A program made the translations under genes and the position numbers. This document shows positions 25,464 to 40,432 of a DNA stretch of 41,013 nt, one piece after another. The DNA is from a virus. Position 1 is the stretch's first letter, and each line of letters starts with the position of its first letter. The notes under the pieces were generated by a model that worked only from the letters and a program-made list of their open reading frames with translations, had not been told where the DNA came from and did no database searches. The stretch lies in the UHGV virus genome UHGV-1836508, one strand, 5' to 3'.

Positions 25464-25507
25464 AAAACAACTTGTTTACTGCATCTGCTAACCAACTTGT
25501 TTTCTGG
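25464..25507 (-). promoter_or_regulatory. two copies of the shared palindromic leader element (AAACAAGTTGTTT type) upstream of the terminase genes
   Basis: Plus strand aaaacaacttgttta (25464-25478) and accaacttgttttctgg (25491-25507); same element as in the early-gene leaders. Confidence 0.5.
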
Positions 25508-32635: not shown

Positions 32636-33157
32636 ATGGTTAAAGACATCACCTACGGCATACCGGCTGAAGTCTGGCCGCGAGACTACGAACATGCTGA
32701 AAACATACTTATGTTCTGGCGGAAGAACAACATTCCTGTAAGAGTCACGCTTGAAGACGGTCAGGTGTTTTGCATGTACGTTCAGGGGACAATGCCTTCC
32801 CGCAATAAGCTAGATTTATGCCCGCTTCCATATGATAAAGAAAATCGTATAAGACTCCCACTTGAGCGCATTAGCACAATTGAATCAGGTGTAATCGATG
32901 GCATTGCTCGCGAGTTCAAAGGTAGGCTAACAATACATCCAGACTATGTTGACAATCAGCCATCACGCCGTGACTTTTTTGCGATATGTCGCAAGGCTTA
33001 TCAAAACGACCAATCTATAAGGGTCTACATGACAGACGGTCGTGAAATAGAAGGGGTGTCAAGAGGCGTTGATGCTTGCCAGGTCACTCTTAAATTAGAA
33101 GACGGCAGAAAAATACTTGTTTTCTTCGATTGGGTTGAACGAATCCTTCCATTTTAA
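32636..33157 (+). CDS. hypothetical protein with two tandem Rof/YaeO-like repeats (possible Rho modulator)
   Basis: Internal duplication …VRVTLEDGQVFCMYVQG…RIRLPLERISTIE / …QVTLKLEDGRKILVFFDWVERI resembling the LTLELKDGE…RLDKITSF pattern of Rof; TATAAT at 32602-32607 upstream. Confidence 0.35.
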   Translation: MVKDITYGIPAEVWPRDYEHAENILMFWRKNNIPVRVTLEDGQVFCMYVQGTMPSRNKLDLCPLPYDKENRIRLPLERISTIESGVIDGIAREFKGRLTIHPDYVDNQPSRRDFFAICRKAYQNDQSIRVYMTDGREIEGVSRGVDACQVTLKLEDGRKILVFFDWVERILPF

Positions 33158-34758: not shown

Positions 34759-34995
34759 AAAGCTATCTGGATGGCCCAGGGGCTGAAACCCCCACCAGCG
34801 ATACCCCAGCGCCGCTACGCAATTTCTGGCGCGATTCCGGGTTTCTCCCGCTCAGTTTTCTACATAAAGGCGACCCCCGCCGTTTCCCGAAAAAATCCTG
34901 GCCGTTTCCCGTCGGCTCATGAATACGTTCCTCGCCGTTTCTGAAAATTTCCCTGCGGCAGCTGGTGGCTATAGAGAAAGGGCCGTTTCTGGCCC
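34759..34995. repeat. iteron array 1: about 6-8 direct repeats of (G)CCGTTTCC(C)-type units
   Basis: gccgtttcccgaaaaaa (34878), gccgtttcccgtcgg (34901), cgccgtttctgaaaat (34933), tttccctgcgg (34950), gccgtttctggccc (34982) plus degenerate copies; non-coding. Confidence 0.75.
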
Positions 34996-35004
34996 TCTTC
35001 TCAG

Positions 35005-35487
35005 TTACACGCCATCAAGGATGTGGATGCGGTTGCTTGCGTATACATTCAGCATAAAGTTAGCGCAAAACAGTTTCCATGTATCAACGCCAGCGGTATA
35101 CGTAATGTTTTTGCATTTAATCGCATTGTTGGCGATCCGCATCCCCTGCGATACTGCTTCATCGTCGGAAAATTTGAACGACGATTGAGTTTTAATCCAG
35201 ACAGAAATCTGCGTAGCGAACTCAATCAGCTTGGACTGGCAGAATCGCCCGGAGCGCACCGGAAAGACGAACGTTCCGAATCCAGAATTTACCACATACG
35301 CTTTCTCAAATACCCGCGAGTAACGACGATTGCCAATGATGTCGCGTGCAATAATGCATTTTTCTTGTGCTGACAGTTCTACCGTCTCATTGTCGCGCCA
35401 TGCACCAAGTACTCGTTTTTCAATGTCAGAGAACGTTACAGCGATATTGCCATGTGCGGGTGCGTTTACAGTAGCGATAAAATTCAT
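35005..35487 (-). CDS. hypothetical 160-aa early-cassette protein A
   Basis: ATG with SD AAGGAAA; own promoter and shared leader element. Confidence 0.6.
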   Translation of the reverse strand: MNFIATVNAPAHGNIAVTFSDIEKRVLGAWRDNETVELSAQEKCIIARDIIGNRRYSRVFEKAYVVNSGFGTFVFPVRSGRFCQSKLIEFATQISVWIKTQSSFKFSDDEAVSQGMRIANNAIKCKNITYTAGVDTWKLFCANFMLNVYASNRIHILDGV

Positions 35488-35508
35488 GATTATTTCCTTA
35501 TCGTAAAT

Positions 35509-35562
35509 AACAAATTGTTTTCTTGTTGGTGTTAATTATCGTTGTACGAATAAGGCGTCAAA
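35509..35562 (-). promoter_or_regulatory. promoter (TTGACG - 15 bp - GATAAT) plus conserved leader element for gene A
   Basis: Minus strand reads TTGACGccttattcgtacaacGATAATtaACACCAACAAGAAAACAATTTGTT, then SD and ATG. Confidence 0.55.
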
Positions 35563-35662
35563 GTGGAAAGTTGCGGTAGCCGGACGAGAACAGGTGGGTT
35601 TGTCGGTTGCCTGGAGGTAAGAGGTTGGTGTTTTTAGCCTGCGGGAAACAGGATGGTCATTT

Positions 35663-35686
35663 AAGGCCACCAGCATTGGTGGCCTT
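35663..35686 (-). terminator. hairpin (terminator or processing site) after gene B; contains a Chi octamer
   Basis: AAGGCCACCA-gcat-TGGTGGCCTT; near-identical copy at 36134-36157. Confidence 0.45.
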
Positions 35687-35691
35687 AGTCT

Positions 35692-35973
35692 TTAGTGGAG
35701 CAGACCGATGTCGATGGTATCCCCTGAATCATCCACACGGATCATCAGCATGGCGAAGGCGTTTAGTGGATAGCTTGCGTGCCATTCAGGGAAGCGGTCA
35801 TCTCGCATGAAGTCGGCAATGTCGTAAACGCATCCCTCAAAGTGGAAGAATCGCGTGCTTACCTGCTCGTCATAATCCACATGATCCATTTCTTGCTGTT
35901 CTGTTTCCGGCAAGTCCAGCCATGATTCAAGGAATACATTTTGTGCTTTAGGGGTAATGGTGAAATCAGTCAT
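35692..35973 (-). CDS. small strongly acidic early-cassette protein B (93 aa; DNA-mimic-like composition)
   Basis: ATG at 35973 with SD GAGGA (the longer track ORF has no SD). About 22 Asp/Glu against about 5 Lys/Arg. Shares a D(I/A)ADFM(R/D) segment with gene F. Confidence 0.55.
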   Translation of the reverse strand: MTDFTITPKAQNVFLESWLDLPETEQQEMDHVDYDEQVSTRFFHFEGCVYDIADFMRDDRFPEWHASYPLNAFAMLMIRVDDSGDTIDIGLLH

Positions 35974-35992
35974 GAGCATATCCTCACTGCGT

Positions 35993-36024
35993 AAACATGT
36001 TGTTTTCTTGTTGGTGTAATTATC
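35993..36024 (-). promoter_or_regulatory. -10 GATAAT plus conserved leader element for gene B
   Basis: Minus strand GCGATAATtACACCAACAAGAAAACAACATGTTTAC. Confidence 0.5.
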
Positions 36025-36133
36025 GCAGTGTAGATAAGGCATAAAAGAAGTTAATACAGGCTGAATACACAAGAAAGGTTCTGGAAGTTGATAGCCAGGT
36101 TTCAAACTAACCTTCGGTTATTAAAAGTCATTT

Positions 36134-36157
36134 AAGACCACCAATGCTGGTGGCCTT
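36134..36157 (-). terminator. hairpin (terminator or processing site), inverted copy of the 35663 element; contains a Chi octamer
   Basis: AAGACCACCA-atgc-TGGTGGCCTT, followed on the minus strand by a U-rich tract. Confidence 0.45.
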
Positions 36158-36308
36158 AATAATTATCGCCCGATTACGCTAAGGATCTTTTCCTCAACTG
36201 ATTTGTTGTTGCGACTAAACTGCCTTGCGTATCTGATGACAGAAGAGGCGTTTTGCTTTCTGACCATCTCGGCTCTTTCCTTCAGGCGTTTCTTGAAATC
36301 GCCCATAT

Positions 36309-36683
36309 TTACCACCAGGCGCAGAAGGTCAGTCTGTTATTGTGAAAGTCGTGGTTCTTAATCAGATCTTCCACAAGCTCTTTCAACTCCCCCACATCAT
36401 GCCAGTAACCTTCATCGTACTCCTGACTGCCGAAGAAAAAACCTTCCCGGGTAGGCAAGTACTCTTCGCAATTACTTTCGTTTATGTGCATCAAATGAGC
36501 CTTCAGAAAACAAATGTCATTCATCGTTAATTCTAAAAGCTCACAATTTTCGACTTCACCTACGTTGCGCTCCATCCACCCAACGAGCGCATTGAACTTA
36601 CGGAAGTAAGCAACCCGCTTTCTGGATGCCTCGTTATTCAGATCGTTTTTAGGCTGTGTCTCGATATAGATATCAAGTCCCAT
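36309..36683 (-). CDS. hypothetical acidic early-cassette protein C (124 aa)
   Basis: ATG at 36683 with SD AAGGAA; track start 36725 is GTG without SD. Confidence 0.55.
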   Translation of the reverse strand: MGLDIYIETQPKNDLNNEASRKRVAYFRKFNALVGWMERNVGEVENCELLELTMNDICFLKAHLMHINESNCEEYLPTREGFFFGSQEYDEGYWHDVGELKELVEDLIKNHDFHNNRLTFCAWW

Positions 36684-36737
36684 GATGGTTTCCTTATTAA
36701 GTTGCTTCAGTGAAATCATTTTCACAAATCAGATAAG

Positions 36738-36760
36738 GCAGAAAACAAATTGTTATCGGG
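36738..36760 (-). promoter_or_regulatory. conserved leader/operator element upstream of gene C, in inverted orientation
   Basis: Plus strand gcagaaaacaaattgttatcggg. Confidence 0.4.
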
Positions 36761-36768
36761 CTTAATAA

Positions 36769-36791
36769 AATGGCGCGGTTTACGCGCCATT
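36769..36791 (-). terminator. intrinsic terminator after gene D
   Basis: AATGGCGCG-gttta-CGCGCCATT then TTATT on the minus strand. Confidence 0.65.
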
Positions 36792-36800
36792 TAAAGAGGA

Positions 36801-37196
36801 TTAAGCGAATACGCTTTCAGGGATTAAGGTGTCGGCAGGAATGCCAGAGGTAATGCGCAGGCCGTACTGACCAATCCAGGTAGTGTTGGTATTCAGGTTG
36901 GAGGCGAATACGGTGTTAACCATATTCATCATGGTTTCAAACACCTCTTCATCAACCTGGCGGAAGTAGTTCTCGATTTTCAGCAGCAGCGGGTCAGTTG
37001 CATCGAGAATGGACTGGTATTGAGTCGCGTACTCGCCGTCGGAGGCATCACCTTTACGCACGATCGTACTGGCCTGGACTTCGGCACCAGTTTCGGTGTT
37101 GTACGTAACAACGGTGATTTTTGCCACATTCTTACCTTCGGCGGTTTCAGAGGCATAGTAAACATCAACTGTCAGTTTTTCGCGTTTAACGGTCAT
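36801..37196 (-). CDS. hypothetical 131-aa early-cassette protein D
   Basis: ATG at 37196 with SD GGAGAG; own sigma70-like promoter. Confidence 0.55.
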   Translation of the reverse strand: MTVKREKLTVDVYYASETAEGKNVAKITVVTYNTETGAEVQASTIVRKGDASDGEYATQYQSILDATDPLLLKIENYFRQVDEEVFETMMNMVNTVFASNLNTNTTWIGQYGLRITSGIPADTLIPESVFA

Positions 37197-37228
37197 TTCA
37201 CTCTCCGTAGTGTTTTGGTTATTTTTAT

Positions 37229-37257
37229 ATTCTATGATCGTAGGTATGTACTTACAA
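37229..37257 (-). promoter_or_regulatory. sigma70-type promoter for gene D (TTGTAA - 17 bp - TAGAAT)
   Basis: Hexamers read on minus strand; -35 lies within a GTAAGTAC motif. Confidence 0.5.
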
Positions 37258-37266
37258 TACAAAAAA

Positions 37267-37289
37267 AGCCCCGTAAGGATGGCGGGGCT
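37267..37289 (-). terminator. intrinsic terminator after gene E
   Basis: Minus strand AGCCCCGCC-atccttac-GGGGCT followed by TTTTTTT. Confidence 0.8.
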
Positions 37290-37323
37290 GTCGTACTGTC
37301 GACTAATTACCACTTGCACATTA

Positions 37324-37635
37324 TCAGGCTATTGCCATCACTGATGCTCTCTGAATTTCTTGCTGGGCCACGCGGTTAACTTCCATCAAAGCCAGTTCGA
37401 GCTGATGTTCCGGCCACATTCTTTGAAATGCCATCCAGCCTTTTCCACGCTGGCGACGAACATTCATTACATAACGAGTAAAGGTGTTTTTATCGAAAGA
37501 CACCGCTGTTTCACGGAACAGACGAATAGAGGTTCCATTGGCAACGATGTCCAGCAAAGTTAATTGAGCAACCAGCGCAGGCTTCTCTTTTCTCTTCTGG
37601 TCTTTGTCCAGACCAAGAACCAATGATTTTTTCAT
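37324..37635 (-). CDS. small basic early-cassette protein E (103 aa; possible nucleic-acid-binding regulator)
   Basis: ATG at 37635 with SD GGAG; Lys/Arg-rich. Confidence 0.5.
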   Translation of the reverse strand: MKKSLVLGLDKDQKRKEKPALVAQLTLLDIVANGTSIRLFRETAVSFDKNTFTRYVMNVRRQRGKGWMAFQRMWPEHQLELALMEVNRVAQQEIQRASVMAIA

Positions 37636-37646
37636 CACAACTCCGT

Positions 37647-37681
37647 AAACAACTTGTTTTCTCAATGGCGTAAATAATACC
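37647..37681 (-). promoter_or_regulatory. -10-like TATTAT plus conserved leader element for gene E
   Basis: Minus strand GGTATTATttacgccattGAGAAAACAAGTTGTTTAC. Confidence 0.45.
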
Positions 37682-37789
37682 AGTAAGAAAACGGCTACAA
37701 AGCATATTGATCAGGCGCATGAGCGATATGCAGGTTCTTCCCTGCGGCTACAGATTAAGTTAAGCCAGCATTGCTGGCTTTGGTTGGGA

Positions 37790-38119
37790 TTACGCGATTA
37801 CCTCAAGAAACTCCTGAACGTCCCAATGCTGGACGAGGTGAAGATAGACCTTAGAAATCACGTCATTTTCGCTATCGCATGTGAAGTAGTACTTCTGGCT
37901 GCGGTTGTATGTGTCCACACAAAATTCGCTCATATCCATAAAGTCAGCATCTTCACCCATGTCGCAAATCATCAAAGCAGGTGCGTCATCACGAGTCATC
38001 AGCTCAAGCACCCACCGCGAATTGATCAGAGTGGAAGACCAACCTTCTAACTCATAAAACTGATCAAACTCTTTTTGAGTTAATTTCTTGATTTGGTTGA
38101 TGTCGATATTTGCAAACAT
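37790..38119 (-). CDS. small strongly acidic early-cassette protein F (109 aa; paralogue-like to B)
   Basis: ATG at 38119 with SD AAGGA; net charge about -15; EDADFMDMSEF segment resembles gene B. Confidence 0.55.
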   Translation of the reverse strand: MFANIDINQIKKLTQKEFDQFYELEGWSSTLINSRWVLELMTRDDAPALMICDMGEDADFMDMSEFCVDTYNRSQKYYFTCDSENDVISKVYLHLVQHWDVQEFLEVIA

Positions 38120-38132
38120 AAAGCAATCCTTA

Positions 38133-38165
38133 AACAACATGTTTTCTTGATGGTGTTATTATCGC
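38133..38165 (-). promoter_or_regulatory. -10 GATAAT plus conserved leader element for gene F
   Basis: Minus strand GCGATAATAACACCATCAAGAAAACATGTTGTTTAAGG. Confidence 0.5.
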
Positions 38166-38479
38166 AATAACGCACAAGCGAAAAAGGATTTTATTCCGGT
38201 GAATGTGGTTTTGGCAGTGAGTTTTCAGGTTCAGTACCGAGAACACTTTTTACATTATTCTGATTTAGTGGCCGAAGGTGGCTGGTGGGCAGAATAATCC
38301 TCTCCCCGAAAACCTACTGAAATCGATTGTGACCCGTTGGCTGTCTGGCACAATTACGCTGTAGCTGGGCATTCAGAGGGAATCCAGCGGTAAGTAAGTT
38401 CGCCTGCACGTGAGCGTCTCTCTTCTTCCCGCACATTACAGGTGGGTAGCCGCAACTCTCCCTCTCGCTATACCGGTAC

Positions 38480-38662
38480 GCCGCCGTTCCTGAACCGGCA
38501 TCGAGCCTTTTCCCGAAATCCACACAGGCAACTCGACCGTTTCCCTGAAAATCCCCAGCCGTTCCCCGAAGGCAATCCAGCCGTTTCTGTAGCGGGATGC
38601 AGCCTTTTCCCTGCGGCGACGCTCCCGTTCCTGAAAATGGACATAGCCTTTTCCCTGGATGG
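38480..38662. repeat. iteron array 2: eight direct repeats of (A)GCCGTTTCCCTGAAAA-type units at 20-23 bp spacing
   Basis: Copies start at about 38484, 38504, 38537, 38557, 38578, 38601, 38624 and 38645; the region has only low-complexity ORFs. Confidence 0.8.
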
Positions 38663-38699
38663 CCCGAAGGCTGACCGAAGGGGTGGAAATAGGCGTTAC

Positions 38700-39690
38700 G
38701 GGGGACGAAAATTATGGCTTGAATTTATACGAAGAAAGTAGCGATACCCCTCCTTCCCTTCCCACTTATACCTCCCACGAATTTTCTCTCTTATGTGGGC
38801 ATAAACCTTCCCTCTGATAACGCTCTATACGGCGAGTATTCCTTTGGGTGAAATGGGTGGTTTGTTCTTTCTACCGGCATATGTGGTTTCGTTCTTCTTG
38901 AGGTGGTTCTTCTCTGTGTTTTCGTCTGGGTTGTTCTCGTCGTTTTGGTGACTGTTCTTCTCCGTGTATGGAGTAATGGCAGGTGGGCGATTGCTTTCGT
39001 TATTGTGTTTGAGTTGTTTGTCTGGAGTGCGTGAAGGGCTTTTGTAGTTATTCGTGTATTGGGTAATGGCGTTTCCCGTGATTGTTATGTTTCGTGTCTT
39101 TTGGGATTGAGAGAAACCTTGCGGTTACAGGCTTCGTTGGGGTTTCAGTGATTCTGGTGTTTCTTCGCTGTTTGGGTAATGGCGTGTCGTGGGTATCGCG
39201 CGTATGGAAGTTTCGAATTGCCTGTGAAAGTTAGGTTGGTTGTCCGGTAGCCTGGGAAGAAGAGGTGGGTCTTTTCGGTAGCCTGCCATAAAGAGGTTGG
39301 TTGTTTTTGGTAATGGCATATGTGTTATTTAGTTGTTTTGTTATACCTGAAAATAAGTTGTTTATATGGTTGTGTAACGCAACGGGAGCGATTTTGAGCG
39401 TGTGTTTTTGTTGGTAGTGTGTTGAGTCGTCTGTGGTGAAATTTGGACGCTGTGGCGCTATCTGCTGCGTGGGATTACGGGTATAAGAAGTGATGTGTGA
39501 AAACGTCAATTTTTTAGACCAAATCGGGTGAAAGCGTTGACATTTCGTTGATCTGTTGTTCAGTTGTTTTCTTATTGGTATAAACAACTATAACCTATTG
39601 ATATTTAAGGATGTGATTGCAGGTATAGAATGGGGGTAGTGGCGATCAACGGATTCTTATAGAAAAGAATCAAATTGTGACCGCCATTAT
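38700..39690. other. ~1-kb GT-rich (plus strand) non-coding tract with dispersed GGTAATGGC repeats
   Basis: No plus-strand ORF of 60 aa or more; minus-strand ORFs are low-complexity with TTG start; GGTAATGGC-like motif at about 38965, 39063, 39175 and 39309. Confidence 0.6.
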
Positions 39691-39697
39691 CAATGTT

Positions 39698-40432
39698 TTA
39701 CTTAGTTTTGTTTAGCAGAGAGAGAATTTCATCACTAATTTCACTCGCCTGTTTGATAGCCAATGCAGTTACCTCTTCTATGGTTGGTGACTGTTGATGC
39801 TCATGTTTGGTTTCAGTTATGACAATGTGTTCTTCACCTGAATTTGCGCATAGTGCCGCATTGACTATAAGGTTTGAGTAAGAATTTAGCAGAGCACTGT
39901 TGATAAACGCTTTCACGGTATTACTGTCTGCACCAAATACATCTTTTCTGACCGCTTCAGCCTCACAGCGAACCCCTGCAGCAACATCGTGAAGAACATG
40001 TATGGCCTTGGGGCTTGTTTGTTCACAGTACTCAATCATTATTGTCGAATTGTTCTGTTCAACAAATGATCTGATGCCTGACGATTCACCCATAGCATCG
40101 AAGGCAGCGTGACCCGCACTAGTAGAGATATCTTCATAGAGTTCTTCATCGCTATCTTTTTCTTCAGGTGTCGAGGTGTCTTCATCGTCGTAATAGATAT
40201 TGCCTTTAATCAGTGTTTTGGACACTTGATATAAACAATAAGAGACAAGATTTAAGCATTGGATTTTAGCTGTATTGTCCTTTGTCGCCTCGCTCTTCAG
40301 TTCTTTCGCTTCTTCAGTAAGGCTGTTGATAAGACTTTGTATTTTTTCCAACGCGTTAGGTGCACACTCAGCGTTGTCCATAAAGAATTTATAACCAGTC
40401 CCAGGGATTTCTAAACTTTTCAACTTTTTCAT
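39698..40432 (-). CDS. hypothetical 244-aa protein
   Basis: ATG start with SD-like AGGAT upstream; acidic central region; no motif recognised. Confidence 0.55.
   Translation of the reverse strand: MKKLKSLEIPGTGYKFFMDNAECAPNALEKIQSLINSLTEEAKELKSEATKDNTAKIQCLNLVSYCLYQVSKTLIKGNIYYDDEDTSTPEEKDSDEELYEDISTSAGHAAFDAMGESSGIRSFVEQNNSTIMIEYCEQTSPKAIHVLHDVAAGVRCEAEAVRKDVFGADSNTVKAFINSALLNSYSNLIVNAALCANSGEEHIVITETKHEHQQSPTIEEVTALAIKQASEISDEILSLLNKTK

Follow-up and report, generated by a model that had tools for sequence, protein, structure and literature searches.

A conserved G/T-rich non-coding tract beside a cargo hotspot in SSU5-type phage-plasmids

The virus genome UHGV-1836508 (41,013 nucleotides, nt; this whole stretch is called the window below) matches the SSU5-like phage-plasmids, with about 94% identity to Escherichia phages Cyrano, CMS-2020a and PhiR41_1 and 78% to Salmonella phage SSU5. 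Close to the right end of the window lies a G/T-rich, non-coding tract, the composition, conservation and surroundings of which were analysed in this study. In the best explanation, the tract acts in cis as a conserved, non-coding boundary element of these phage-plasmids. For the present, it is classed as an unusual variant, long and conserved, of a known type of cis-element rather than as a new class. Its main function may be that of a directional Rho-dependent insulator or attenuator against leftward transcription, a tentative reading to which we assign a probability of roughly 0.35. The composition-level facts fit such a putative insulator best. The motif-level facts fit a DNA-level role better, either as a regulator hub or as part of a lytic origin together with a neighbouring repeat array; these readings and insulation are not mutually exclusive.

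Composition, conservation and coding status

The plus strand of the tract is dominated by G and T, as the initial annotation had stated. The best 600-nt segment (38841–39440) contains 72.8% G+T compared with a mean of 50.2% over the whole window (standard deviation, SD, 3.6%), which places the tract 6 SD above the mean; the runner-up 600-nt segment anywhere reaches 61%. In 200-nt segments starting at 38900–39300, the GC skew is +0.40 to +0.56 and the AT skew −0.24 to −0.63. The GC skew changes sign at about 38840, being mildly negative on the left (C/G 1.46) and strongly positive on the right. An RNA read leftward from 38843–39499, if made, would consist of 40% A, 33% C, 15% U and 12.5% G, with a C/G ratio of 2.62 over 657 nt (0.87 for the window) and 14 pyrimidine–C (YC) dimers per 100 nt against 9.4. 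The tract is the longest region of the window with C over G on the sense strand, and the excess of C over G in the leftward RNA stays at 15 or more per 100 nt nearly unbroken from 38831 to 39699. This RNA would have the composition that marks Rho-dependent terminators and their Rho-utilisation (rut) sites, namely at least about 80 nt with C well over G. Biases of ACA and other k-mers in the tract are at composition expectation only.

An alignment of 42 distinct homologues from plasmids and IMG/VR contigs was used to evaluate conservation. Each of these sequences has 28–31% G and 33–38% T, the skew profile is identical in kind in all nine relatives examined (9/9), and the skew is retained down to about 57% identity. 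The tract with its conserved flanks (38690–39697) stays 1,002–1,060 nt long across the 42 sequences, which come from several genera. Between the Cyrano and SSU5 lineages, the identity of the tract is 0.69; in two flanking genes, taken as a control for the same lineages, it is 0.44 at third, 0.66–0.71 at first and 0.75–0.81 at second codon positions. Judged by this comparison with synonymous-like sites (0.69 vs 0.44), the tract is under purifying selection. Alignment columns with two states are G/T in 59 cases in the tract, against 66 for A/G and 68 for C/T, and in the left flank the corresponding numbers are 2, 23 and 31. Both the composition class and particular sequence blocks are constrained, because the tract is conserved, keeps its skew and exchanges G and T freely. 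One natural plasmid, L244 from an E. coli blood isolate (NZ_CP083480.1), carries an IS1 element inside the tract at the equivalent of about 38925, and disruption of the tract is therefore tolerated in the plasmid state.

The description of the tract as non-coding was upheld. Plus-strand open reading frames (ORFs) between 38800 and 39450 encode 30–50 amino acids, in agreement with the earlier claim that none of 60 or more exists. Two minus-strand ORFs are present as described, one of which (39231–39587, 118 amino acids) has the TTG start ascribed to both; the other (39125–39319, 64 amino acids) starts with ATG. In the 42-sequence alignment, substitutions have no 3-base periodicity and column entropy is flat per phase, most indels in the tract are of 1, 2, 8, 10 or 11 nt and mostly not multiples of three, and stop-free runs change place and strand from lineage to lineage. 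Neither the codon periodicity nor the conserved frame of a protein-coding gene or pseudogene was found. The initial annotation would have been overturned by the joint absence of a transcript and of conservation, or by a frameshifted conserved gene; conservation was found and a conserved coding frame was not. With no periodicity, no conserved ORF and non-triplet indels, an RNA from the tract would not be shielded by ribosomes, as is typical of rut regions.

A long non-coding RNA was one of the candidates proposed earlier; a structured one received no support. Rfam gave no match at E ≤ 1 on either strand between 37000 and 41013, and a scan for tRNA and tmRNA genes was negative. The plus-strand RNA folds no better than shuffled sequences (z = +0.68). 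The minus-strand RNA folds very weakly (−81 kcal/mol for 671 nt), with single-sequence energies of about −8 to −17 kcal/mol for 120-nt pieces; it is almost unable to pair because G and U are both depleted, and little structure is a further property of rut RNA. Sliding RNAalifold analysis of seven diverse sequences returned a structure conservation index below 0.5 everywhere and no conserved fold on either strand.

Boundary position, transcription and the insulator reading

Sequence conservation ends with the tract, beyond which a cargo hotspot begins: among 50 loci, 45 share one main group of left flank, and the right flanks belong to 10 homology groups that are unrelated to one another. Annotated cargo on the right includes a coiled-coil protein, a DUF262 gene with a type I restriction-modification system and an Ivy lysozyme inhibitor. 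Given these 10 unrelated groups, the tract faces ever-changing incoming transcription, and all genes that neighbour it in the window point leftward. A more sensitive search found the tract in 838 PLSDB plasmids at identities down to about 67%, from Klebsiella (430), Escherichia (224), Enterobacter (90), Salmonella (49) and others including Citrobacter and Cronobacter. It occurs in 245 of 5,426 complete E. coli genomes (4.5%), in every case on a plasmid, and the only additions from a scan of GTDB genomes were two contigs from Kluyvera and two that are probably strays. The NCBI pipeline leaves the tract unannotated in nearly all plasmid and genome records, and the hypothetical ORFs called in phage records disagree with one another and differ in strand. 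The literature searched on the origins, transcriptomes and non-coding regions of pHCM2 and SSU5 does not describe it. A scan of IMG/VR for paired GTAATGGC motifs returned chance-level matches only, none of which is G/T-rich.

Expression values for this region come from RNA sequencing data on a Cyrano lysogen, re-analysed in a study of strain LF82 (PMC9928086, S1 Table). CYRAN_102, the gene just right of the tract, reaches log2(FPKM+5) values of 5.6–9.2, that is, up to about 585 fragments per kilobase per million (FPKM) (PMC9928086). CYRAN_103, a leftward-strand ORF call inside the tract, stands at 2.32, or zero FPKM, in LB and at 4.3 or less (at most about 14 FPKM) elsewhere among the five conditions, and CYRAN_104, over the repeat array, is at background level (PMC9928086). 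The data appear to be strand-specific, because antisense transcripts were reported (PMC9928086). The leftward signal is lost within about 110 nt of the CYRAN_102 stop codon, near a hairpin, in this one lysogen. These data argue against a leftward tract RNA in the Cyrano lysogen; rightward or lytic-phase RNA lies outside their reach. The leftward CA-rich transcript that had been proposed is thus absent from the sole transcriptome found, which does not cover the lytic phase. Matches in a simple scan for sigma-70 promoters and terminators are no commoner than in shuffles, all sites from a position-weight-matrix promoter scan of 11 lineages combine a good −35 box with a poor −10 box, and no boxA- or nut-like antitermination site occurs in the tract region.

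In the reading that we favour, RNA polymerase would arrive from the right, having started either in a cargo gene further right than 39690 or at weak promoter-like sites that are linked to operators (39480–39600). It would then produce at least 650 nt of untranslated RNA that is nearly all A and C, barely foldable and has a C/G ratio of 2.6. Such RNA should be an ideal loading substrate for Rho, by which leftward transcription would be terminated, and the unprotected RNA may be trimmed back to the invariant hairpin at 39640–39686. Variable cargo would in this way be barred from driving the conserved cassettes on the left, each of which appears to have its own promoter, operator and terminator. 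The tract resembles the Rho terminators with rut sites of lambda tR1 and the nin region, and the Rho silencing of horizontally acquired DNA, in that its RNA would be untranslated, C-rich, G-poor and unstructured. Like those terminators, it also lies in a temperate phage, downstream of an active unit and between differently regulated blocks; the loss of RNA signal in the Cyrano lysogen may be a further likeness. Unlike typical rut regions, the tract is about 5-fold longer and its RNA is depleted of U besides G; it is also strongly conserved in sequence, contains repeated motifs and an embedded operator and has no nut- or boxA-like site that was found, and its dependence on Rho is putative.

Several points weigh against the insulator. 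A 30-nt intrinsic terminator would serve equally, and Rho sites tend to be short, with little conservation of their sequence. A length of 650 nt, with blocks more than 90% conserved across genera and with positionally conserved motifs, is not accounted for by insulation alone. The depletion of U is as strong as that of G, although Rho needs no U depletion, and the hairpin by itself could just as well account for the loss of signal, which is complete about 110 nt or less past the upstream stop codon. In Klebsiella, the adjacent cargo points away from the tract, and the tract is nonetheless kept. The 22-base-pair (bp) array next door and the change of skew sign at about 38840 are likewise unaccounted for. 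The probability was held at about 0.35 because the conservation and motifs, the retention in Klebsiella and the phased array stay unexplained.

Repeats, operator-type motifs and neighbouring features

The features of the tract and its surroundings are listed in Table 1.

Table 1. Positions of the tract, its sub-elements and adjoining features in the window
Feature	Position	Strand	Basis or remark
Eight direct repeats GCCKTTYCCC, 22-bp phase with one 31-bp step	38484–38656		Beside the tract, not within it
Conserved left block with C-run CCCCTCCTTCCCTTCCC at 38747–38763	38690–38842		Conserved; GC skew sign change
Core skewed tract	38843–39499	−	Maximal-scoring G/T segment; plus strand 73% G+T
Dispersed repeat unit 1, TGTTCTTCTCCGTGTATGGAGTAATGGC	38953–38980		Best conserved block of the tract
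Dispersed repeat unit 2, GGTAATGGC at its end	39043–39070		Repeat families; conserved position
Dispersed repeat unit 3, GGTAATGGC at its end	39156–39183		Repeat families; conserved position
Tandem 31-nt repeats CGGTAGCCTG...AGAGGTGGGT	39220–39306		Two full copies and one partial
Fourth GGTAATGGC copy	39309–39317		Motif match; conserved position
Palindromic operator-type site AAATAAGTTGTTT, family AAACAAnTTGTTT	39351–39363		Perfect palindrome in SSU5-type relatives
Weak leftward promoter-like site TTGACG, 18 nt, TATACC	39480–39509	−	9/11 lineages
Inverted repeat GAAAACGTCAA...GTTGACnTTTC	39499–39565	+	Rightward TTGACA −35-like box at 39537–39542, poor −10
Leader-like element TTGTTTTCTTATTGGTATAAACAA	39564–39587	−	Operator half-sites in inverted order, TTGTTT(12)AAACAA
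Inverted repeat/hairpin TGGCGATCA...TGACCGCCA	39640–39686	−	Invariant; last conserved sequence before variable cargo
Upstream leftward cargo gene, coiled-coil, 244 amino acids (CYRAN_102)	39698–40432	−	Expressed in lysogen; transcript ends before the tract

The recurrence of a short motif in the tract was confirmed, with exact copies of GGTAATGGC at 39062, 39175 and 39309 and AGTAATGGC ending at 38980. There are four exact GGTAATGGC matches in the window, one of them outside the tract, against 0.25 expected, and no shuffled sequence reached four. The motif closes units of about 30 nt ending in GTAATGGC, of which four copies are present here and three to six in relatives, at conserved alignment positions. 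These units are colinear with the −10 box, start region and half-operator of the gene cassettes on the left (unit 3 when read leftward); they are spaced 34–134 bp apart without helical regularity. The 31-nt repeats vary from one to three copies among relatives, by whole units, and are homologous to 35566–35650, just upstream of a cassette promoter (score 57 vs null 22 ± 2.4). Within them, CGGTAGCCTG (39245–39254, 39276–39285 and 35568–35577) agrees with the RfaH ops element GGCGGTAGnnTG at 10 of 12 positions, core included. An ops element is expected on the non-template strand in the leader of a long operon; this match is conserved and lies on the plus strand, on which the window has no rightward gene, and the repeats at 35566–35650 face against all genes. 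The Klebsiella cargo downstream of CGGTAGCCTG is rightward, and a fragment that travels with cargo begins exactly at 39245. An ops-like match on the leftward strand (38878) is not conserved.

The AAACAAnTTGTTT family has eight sites in the window against 0.24 expected, the 13-mers starting at 25465, 25490, 35508, 35993, 36743, 37647, 38132 and 39351. They lie between the −10 box and the ribosome-binding site of each small left gene and upstream of the terminase gene, and the motif precedes many genes in the complete related plasmid NZ_CP134368. AAACAAnTTGTTT looks like a candidate operator of a global repressor of the element. From these likenesses, the tract seems to be built from duplicated promoter–operator modules, and the operator-type palindrome and the module-derived repeats are probably binding sites for regulators. 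The proposal that the whole tract is an array of decayed cassette promoters was rejected, with only two sub-elements significantly or recognisably homologous. Fis motifs are absent from the tract region.

At the right end, several conserved TTGAC-type boxes in both orientations occur between 39480 and 39600, and the spacer of the TTGACG-18-TATACC site is fixed in length and variable in sequence. The segment 39499–39565 always accompanies rightward DUF262/restriction-modification cargo in Klebsiella plasmids. Two non-phage Klebsiella IncFIB/IncHI1B plasmids of 194–238 kb (L004 and L005) hold only the right part of the tract, as fragments (39245–39693 or merely 39477–39579) upstream of a DUF262 gene; the type I restriction-modification system comes next in L004, and the fragment lies near psiA in L005. 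The leader-like element reported earlier does resemble, in its core, the leader and operator upstream of the small genes; neither the GATAAT −10 box nor the second half-site of their operator is present in it. TTGTTTTCTTATTGGTATAAACAA is unique in the window at up to three mismatches, and its core GTTGTTTTCTTAT has six matches at up to two mismatches against 1.6 expected; its alignment to 35999–36019 (score 32) falls inside the range of shuffles. The hairpin has an invariant 8-bp stem core without covariation or compensatory changes, and it is therefore uninformative on whether it acts as RNA or as DNA. Homology to the Enterobacter relative L007 breaks off within it. A pairing of GCCAUUACC with 39683–39693 was also considered and rejected, as the complementarity is not kept in other lineages.

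To the left, the array units start at 38484, 38506, 38537, 38559, 38581, 38603, 38625 and 38647, and the array ends 190 bp from the tract. A second related array of about four units lies at 34880–34990, 3.6 kb off, and GCCKTTYCCC occurs at these two loci only in a whole related plasmid. The number of units differs by lineage, the window having a 42-nt gain. The repeats are not the iterons of RepA, whose sequence ATCCACTnTAGAGAG differs; in a related plasmid of 106 kb, repA and the tract are separated by about 33 kb. The window is mosaic: 38700–38990 shares 88–93% identity with one or both of the two relatives of SSU5/Enterobacter type that were compared, most of the remaining sequence is 95–100% Cyrano-type, and 38600–38699 is a poor match to either type. 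The breakpoints lie within the repeat array and, in the tract, just past its most conserved block. A patch within 38600–38990 has the look of gene conversion.

Among the neighbouring genes, 35005–38140 holds five or six small minus-strand genes, all in PHROGs families of unknown function, as are the other neighbouring proteins searched. The small genes look like self-contained cassettes, the clearest of which are each equipped with a TTGACG/GATAAT promoter, an operator and a hairpin terminator. Chi or its complement occurs in several of the cassette terminators. In total, 13 Chi octamers (5 plus, 8 minus) occur in the 41 kb against about 1.25 expected by chance, two of which, at 38281 and 34961, each lie beside a repeat array. 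Chi-like octamers in the tract number one with up to one mismatch (1.0 expected) and six with up to two (9.2 expected). At 38327–38354 on the plus strand, 6 of 10 relatives have a candidate promoter directed rightward, TTGTGA-16-CACAAT (in Enterobacter, TTGAGA-16-CAGAAT), which would read across the repeat array into the tract. The plus-strand gene 32636–33157 encodes a 173-amino-acid protein with the Pfam domain Flag1_repress (FljA, translational repressor of fliC mRNA; E = 1e-80), and its C-terminal part has an Hfq-like match below threshold. Mimicry of the fliC 5′ region by the tract, considered because of this gene, was rejected (score 20 vs null 19), and no link between the gene and the tract could be demonstrated.

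Alternative roles and biological significance

Two roles at the DNA level compete with insulation. The 1.5-kb gap may be a replication-associated cis region, for example a lytic origin, with a putative initiator on the 22-bp array; derepressed leftward transcription from 39480–39600 toward the G-cluster and the array would then activate or prime replication. We consider such an origin, which the initial annotation had listed among its candidates, rather unlikely. Its direct repeats lie about two helical turns apart, as in iteron origins, in the array beside the tract. The eight phased units with gain and loss between lineages, at two loci 3.6 kb apart and distinct from the RepA iterons, speak for it, as do the conserved C-run, the change of skew sign at about 38840, the silence of the region in lysogeny, the positionally conserved motifs as possible binding sites and the element's own RNase HI, primase, DnaB-like helicase, ligase and 5′–3′ exonuclease; no lytic origin has been described for these elements in the literature searched. 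A phased array with a second copy kilobases off, a regulated promoter-like region aimed at the array and own RNase H and replisome genes are also reminiscent of P4 ori/crr, lambda ori and ColE1 RNA II. Unlike those origins, the region contains no DnaA boxes (TTWTNCACA) and no clear AT-rich unwinding element by the repeats, its sole AT-rich patches being 40-mers at 39328 and 39569 that are operator sites, and no initiator gene was identified beside the array, where the neighbours have no Pfam, NCBIfam or PADLOC match. The cumulative skew of a whole related plasmid is monotonic, without a switch at the tract; the IS1 insertion also counts against an origin, although it demonstrates tolerance in the plasmid state only. 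On grounds of hybrid stability, R-loop formation should not be favoured by a CA-rich RNA made leftward from a GT-rich template, which further lowers the standing of an origin, and the skewed tract itself has no counterpart in P4, lambda or ColE1. Nothing points to a packaging site, which had been suggested together with the origin, and no test aimed at packaging was made. A hub of regulator sites derived from duplicated promoter–operator modules, with the global repressor and a factor on the 31-nt repeats as putative occupants, is likewise a doubtful candidate. It would either keep promoters in the vicinity repressed, cooperatively or through looping, or store regulator as a reservoir. The placement of AAACAAnTTGTTT at every cassette promoter, upstream of the terminase and late genes and once inside the tract is consistent with it, and so are the operator half-sites at 39564–39587, the 31-nt repeats shared with the upstream region of a cassette promoter and the GTAATGGC units that match the cassette order at conserved positions. 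Such a hub leaves 650 nt of strand asymmetry and the tolerated G-to-T swaps in both directions unexplained; moreover, the tract has a single full operator, the spacing of its units lacks helical regularity, and its similarity to cassette modules beyond two sub-elements is not significant.

The remaining alternatives are weaker. A lytic-phase leftward RNA of about 0.7–1.2 kb, structure-free and CA-rich, could titrate, in trans, a nuclease or a factor that binds single-stranded RNA, a role that we judge distinctly unlikely. The conserved leftward promoter-like sites and operators at the right end of the tract, the extreme lack of structure with conserved repeated motifs and the retention of the tract where no neighbour gene reads in would suit it, and the tract, if it is transcribed at all, would resemble CsrB/RsmZ and CrcZ in giving a long non-coding RNA whose repeated short motifs are unpaired. 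In contrast to these, GGA (three in the leftward RNA, at composition expectation) and Hfq-type ARN runs (×3, ×4 and ×5, the same as shuffles) are not enriched in the way that a CsrB- or CrcZ-type sponge would require, no motif is presented in a hairpin and Rfam gives no match; the tract also shows no similarity to the fliC 5′ region. No leftward RNA was seen in the lysogen under five conditions, the −10 boxes of the promoter-like sites are poor, and such an RNA should itself meet Rho termination and fast decay. The narrower version, in which a derepressed 0.7–1.2 kb A/C-only RNA titrates Rho or another host single-stranded-RNA binder or nuclease, is very unlikely. Equally remote is a recombination linker, that is, a conserved homology arm by the cargo hotspot, whose G/T-rich strand would favour RecA pairing and which would be retained for promoting the exchange of cargo modules. 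RecA prefers GT-rich DNA. The hotspot boundary with 10 different right flanks, the mosaic window with breakpoints inside the array and the tract, and the large non-phage Klebsiella plasmids that hold the right part of the tract together with cargo are in keeping with a linker, and lambdoid boundary sequences are likewise conserved non-coding junctions to exchangeable genes with recombination breakpoints inside. Lambdoid linkers, however, are tens of bases long without compositional asymmetry, compared with 650–1,000 nt and an extreme strand skew here; Chi-like octamers are not above composition expectation, selection for evolvability is weak, and a linker leaves the conserved motifs and the strand orientation unexplained. 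The sponge and linker roles are possible and have no positive support. Finally, the tract might be a decaying remnant of genes or promoter modules without present function. Parts of it can be recognised as paralogues of the regulatory modules of the cassettes, in which the −35 and −10 boxes are ruined, and one natural IS1 insertion is tolerated. The decayed gene proposed earlier is nevertheless disfavoured, because the tract is conserved in sequence (about as well as the first codon positions of its neighbours, and well above their third), in length and in skew across genera; with 838 plasmids also carrying it, we regard a remnant as most improbable.

SSU5-type phage-plasmids are common in clinical E. 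coli, Klebsiella, Enterobacter and Salmonella, and defence systems and other cargo sit right beside the tract. A conserved kilobase that is left blank in annotation, and is selected as strongly as the neighbouring proteins, thus marks the edge of the cargo hotspot. An RNA sink for Rho, if it existed, would represent RNA-based anti-termination or anti-defence, with GCCAUUAC-type repeats as binding units. Should the tract prove to be a lytic origin or a regulator hub, a control element so far missing from a little-studied group of phages would be located. Directional insulation, if that is its role, would account for the ability of these elements to exchange cargo without upsetting their own gene programme.

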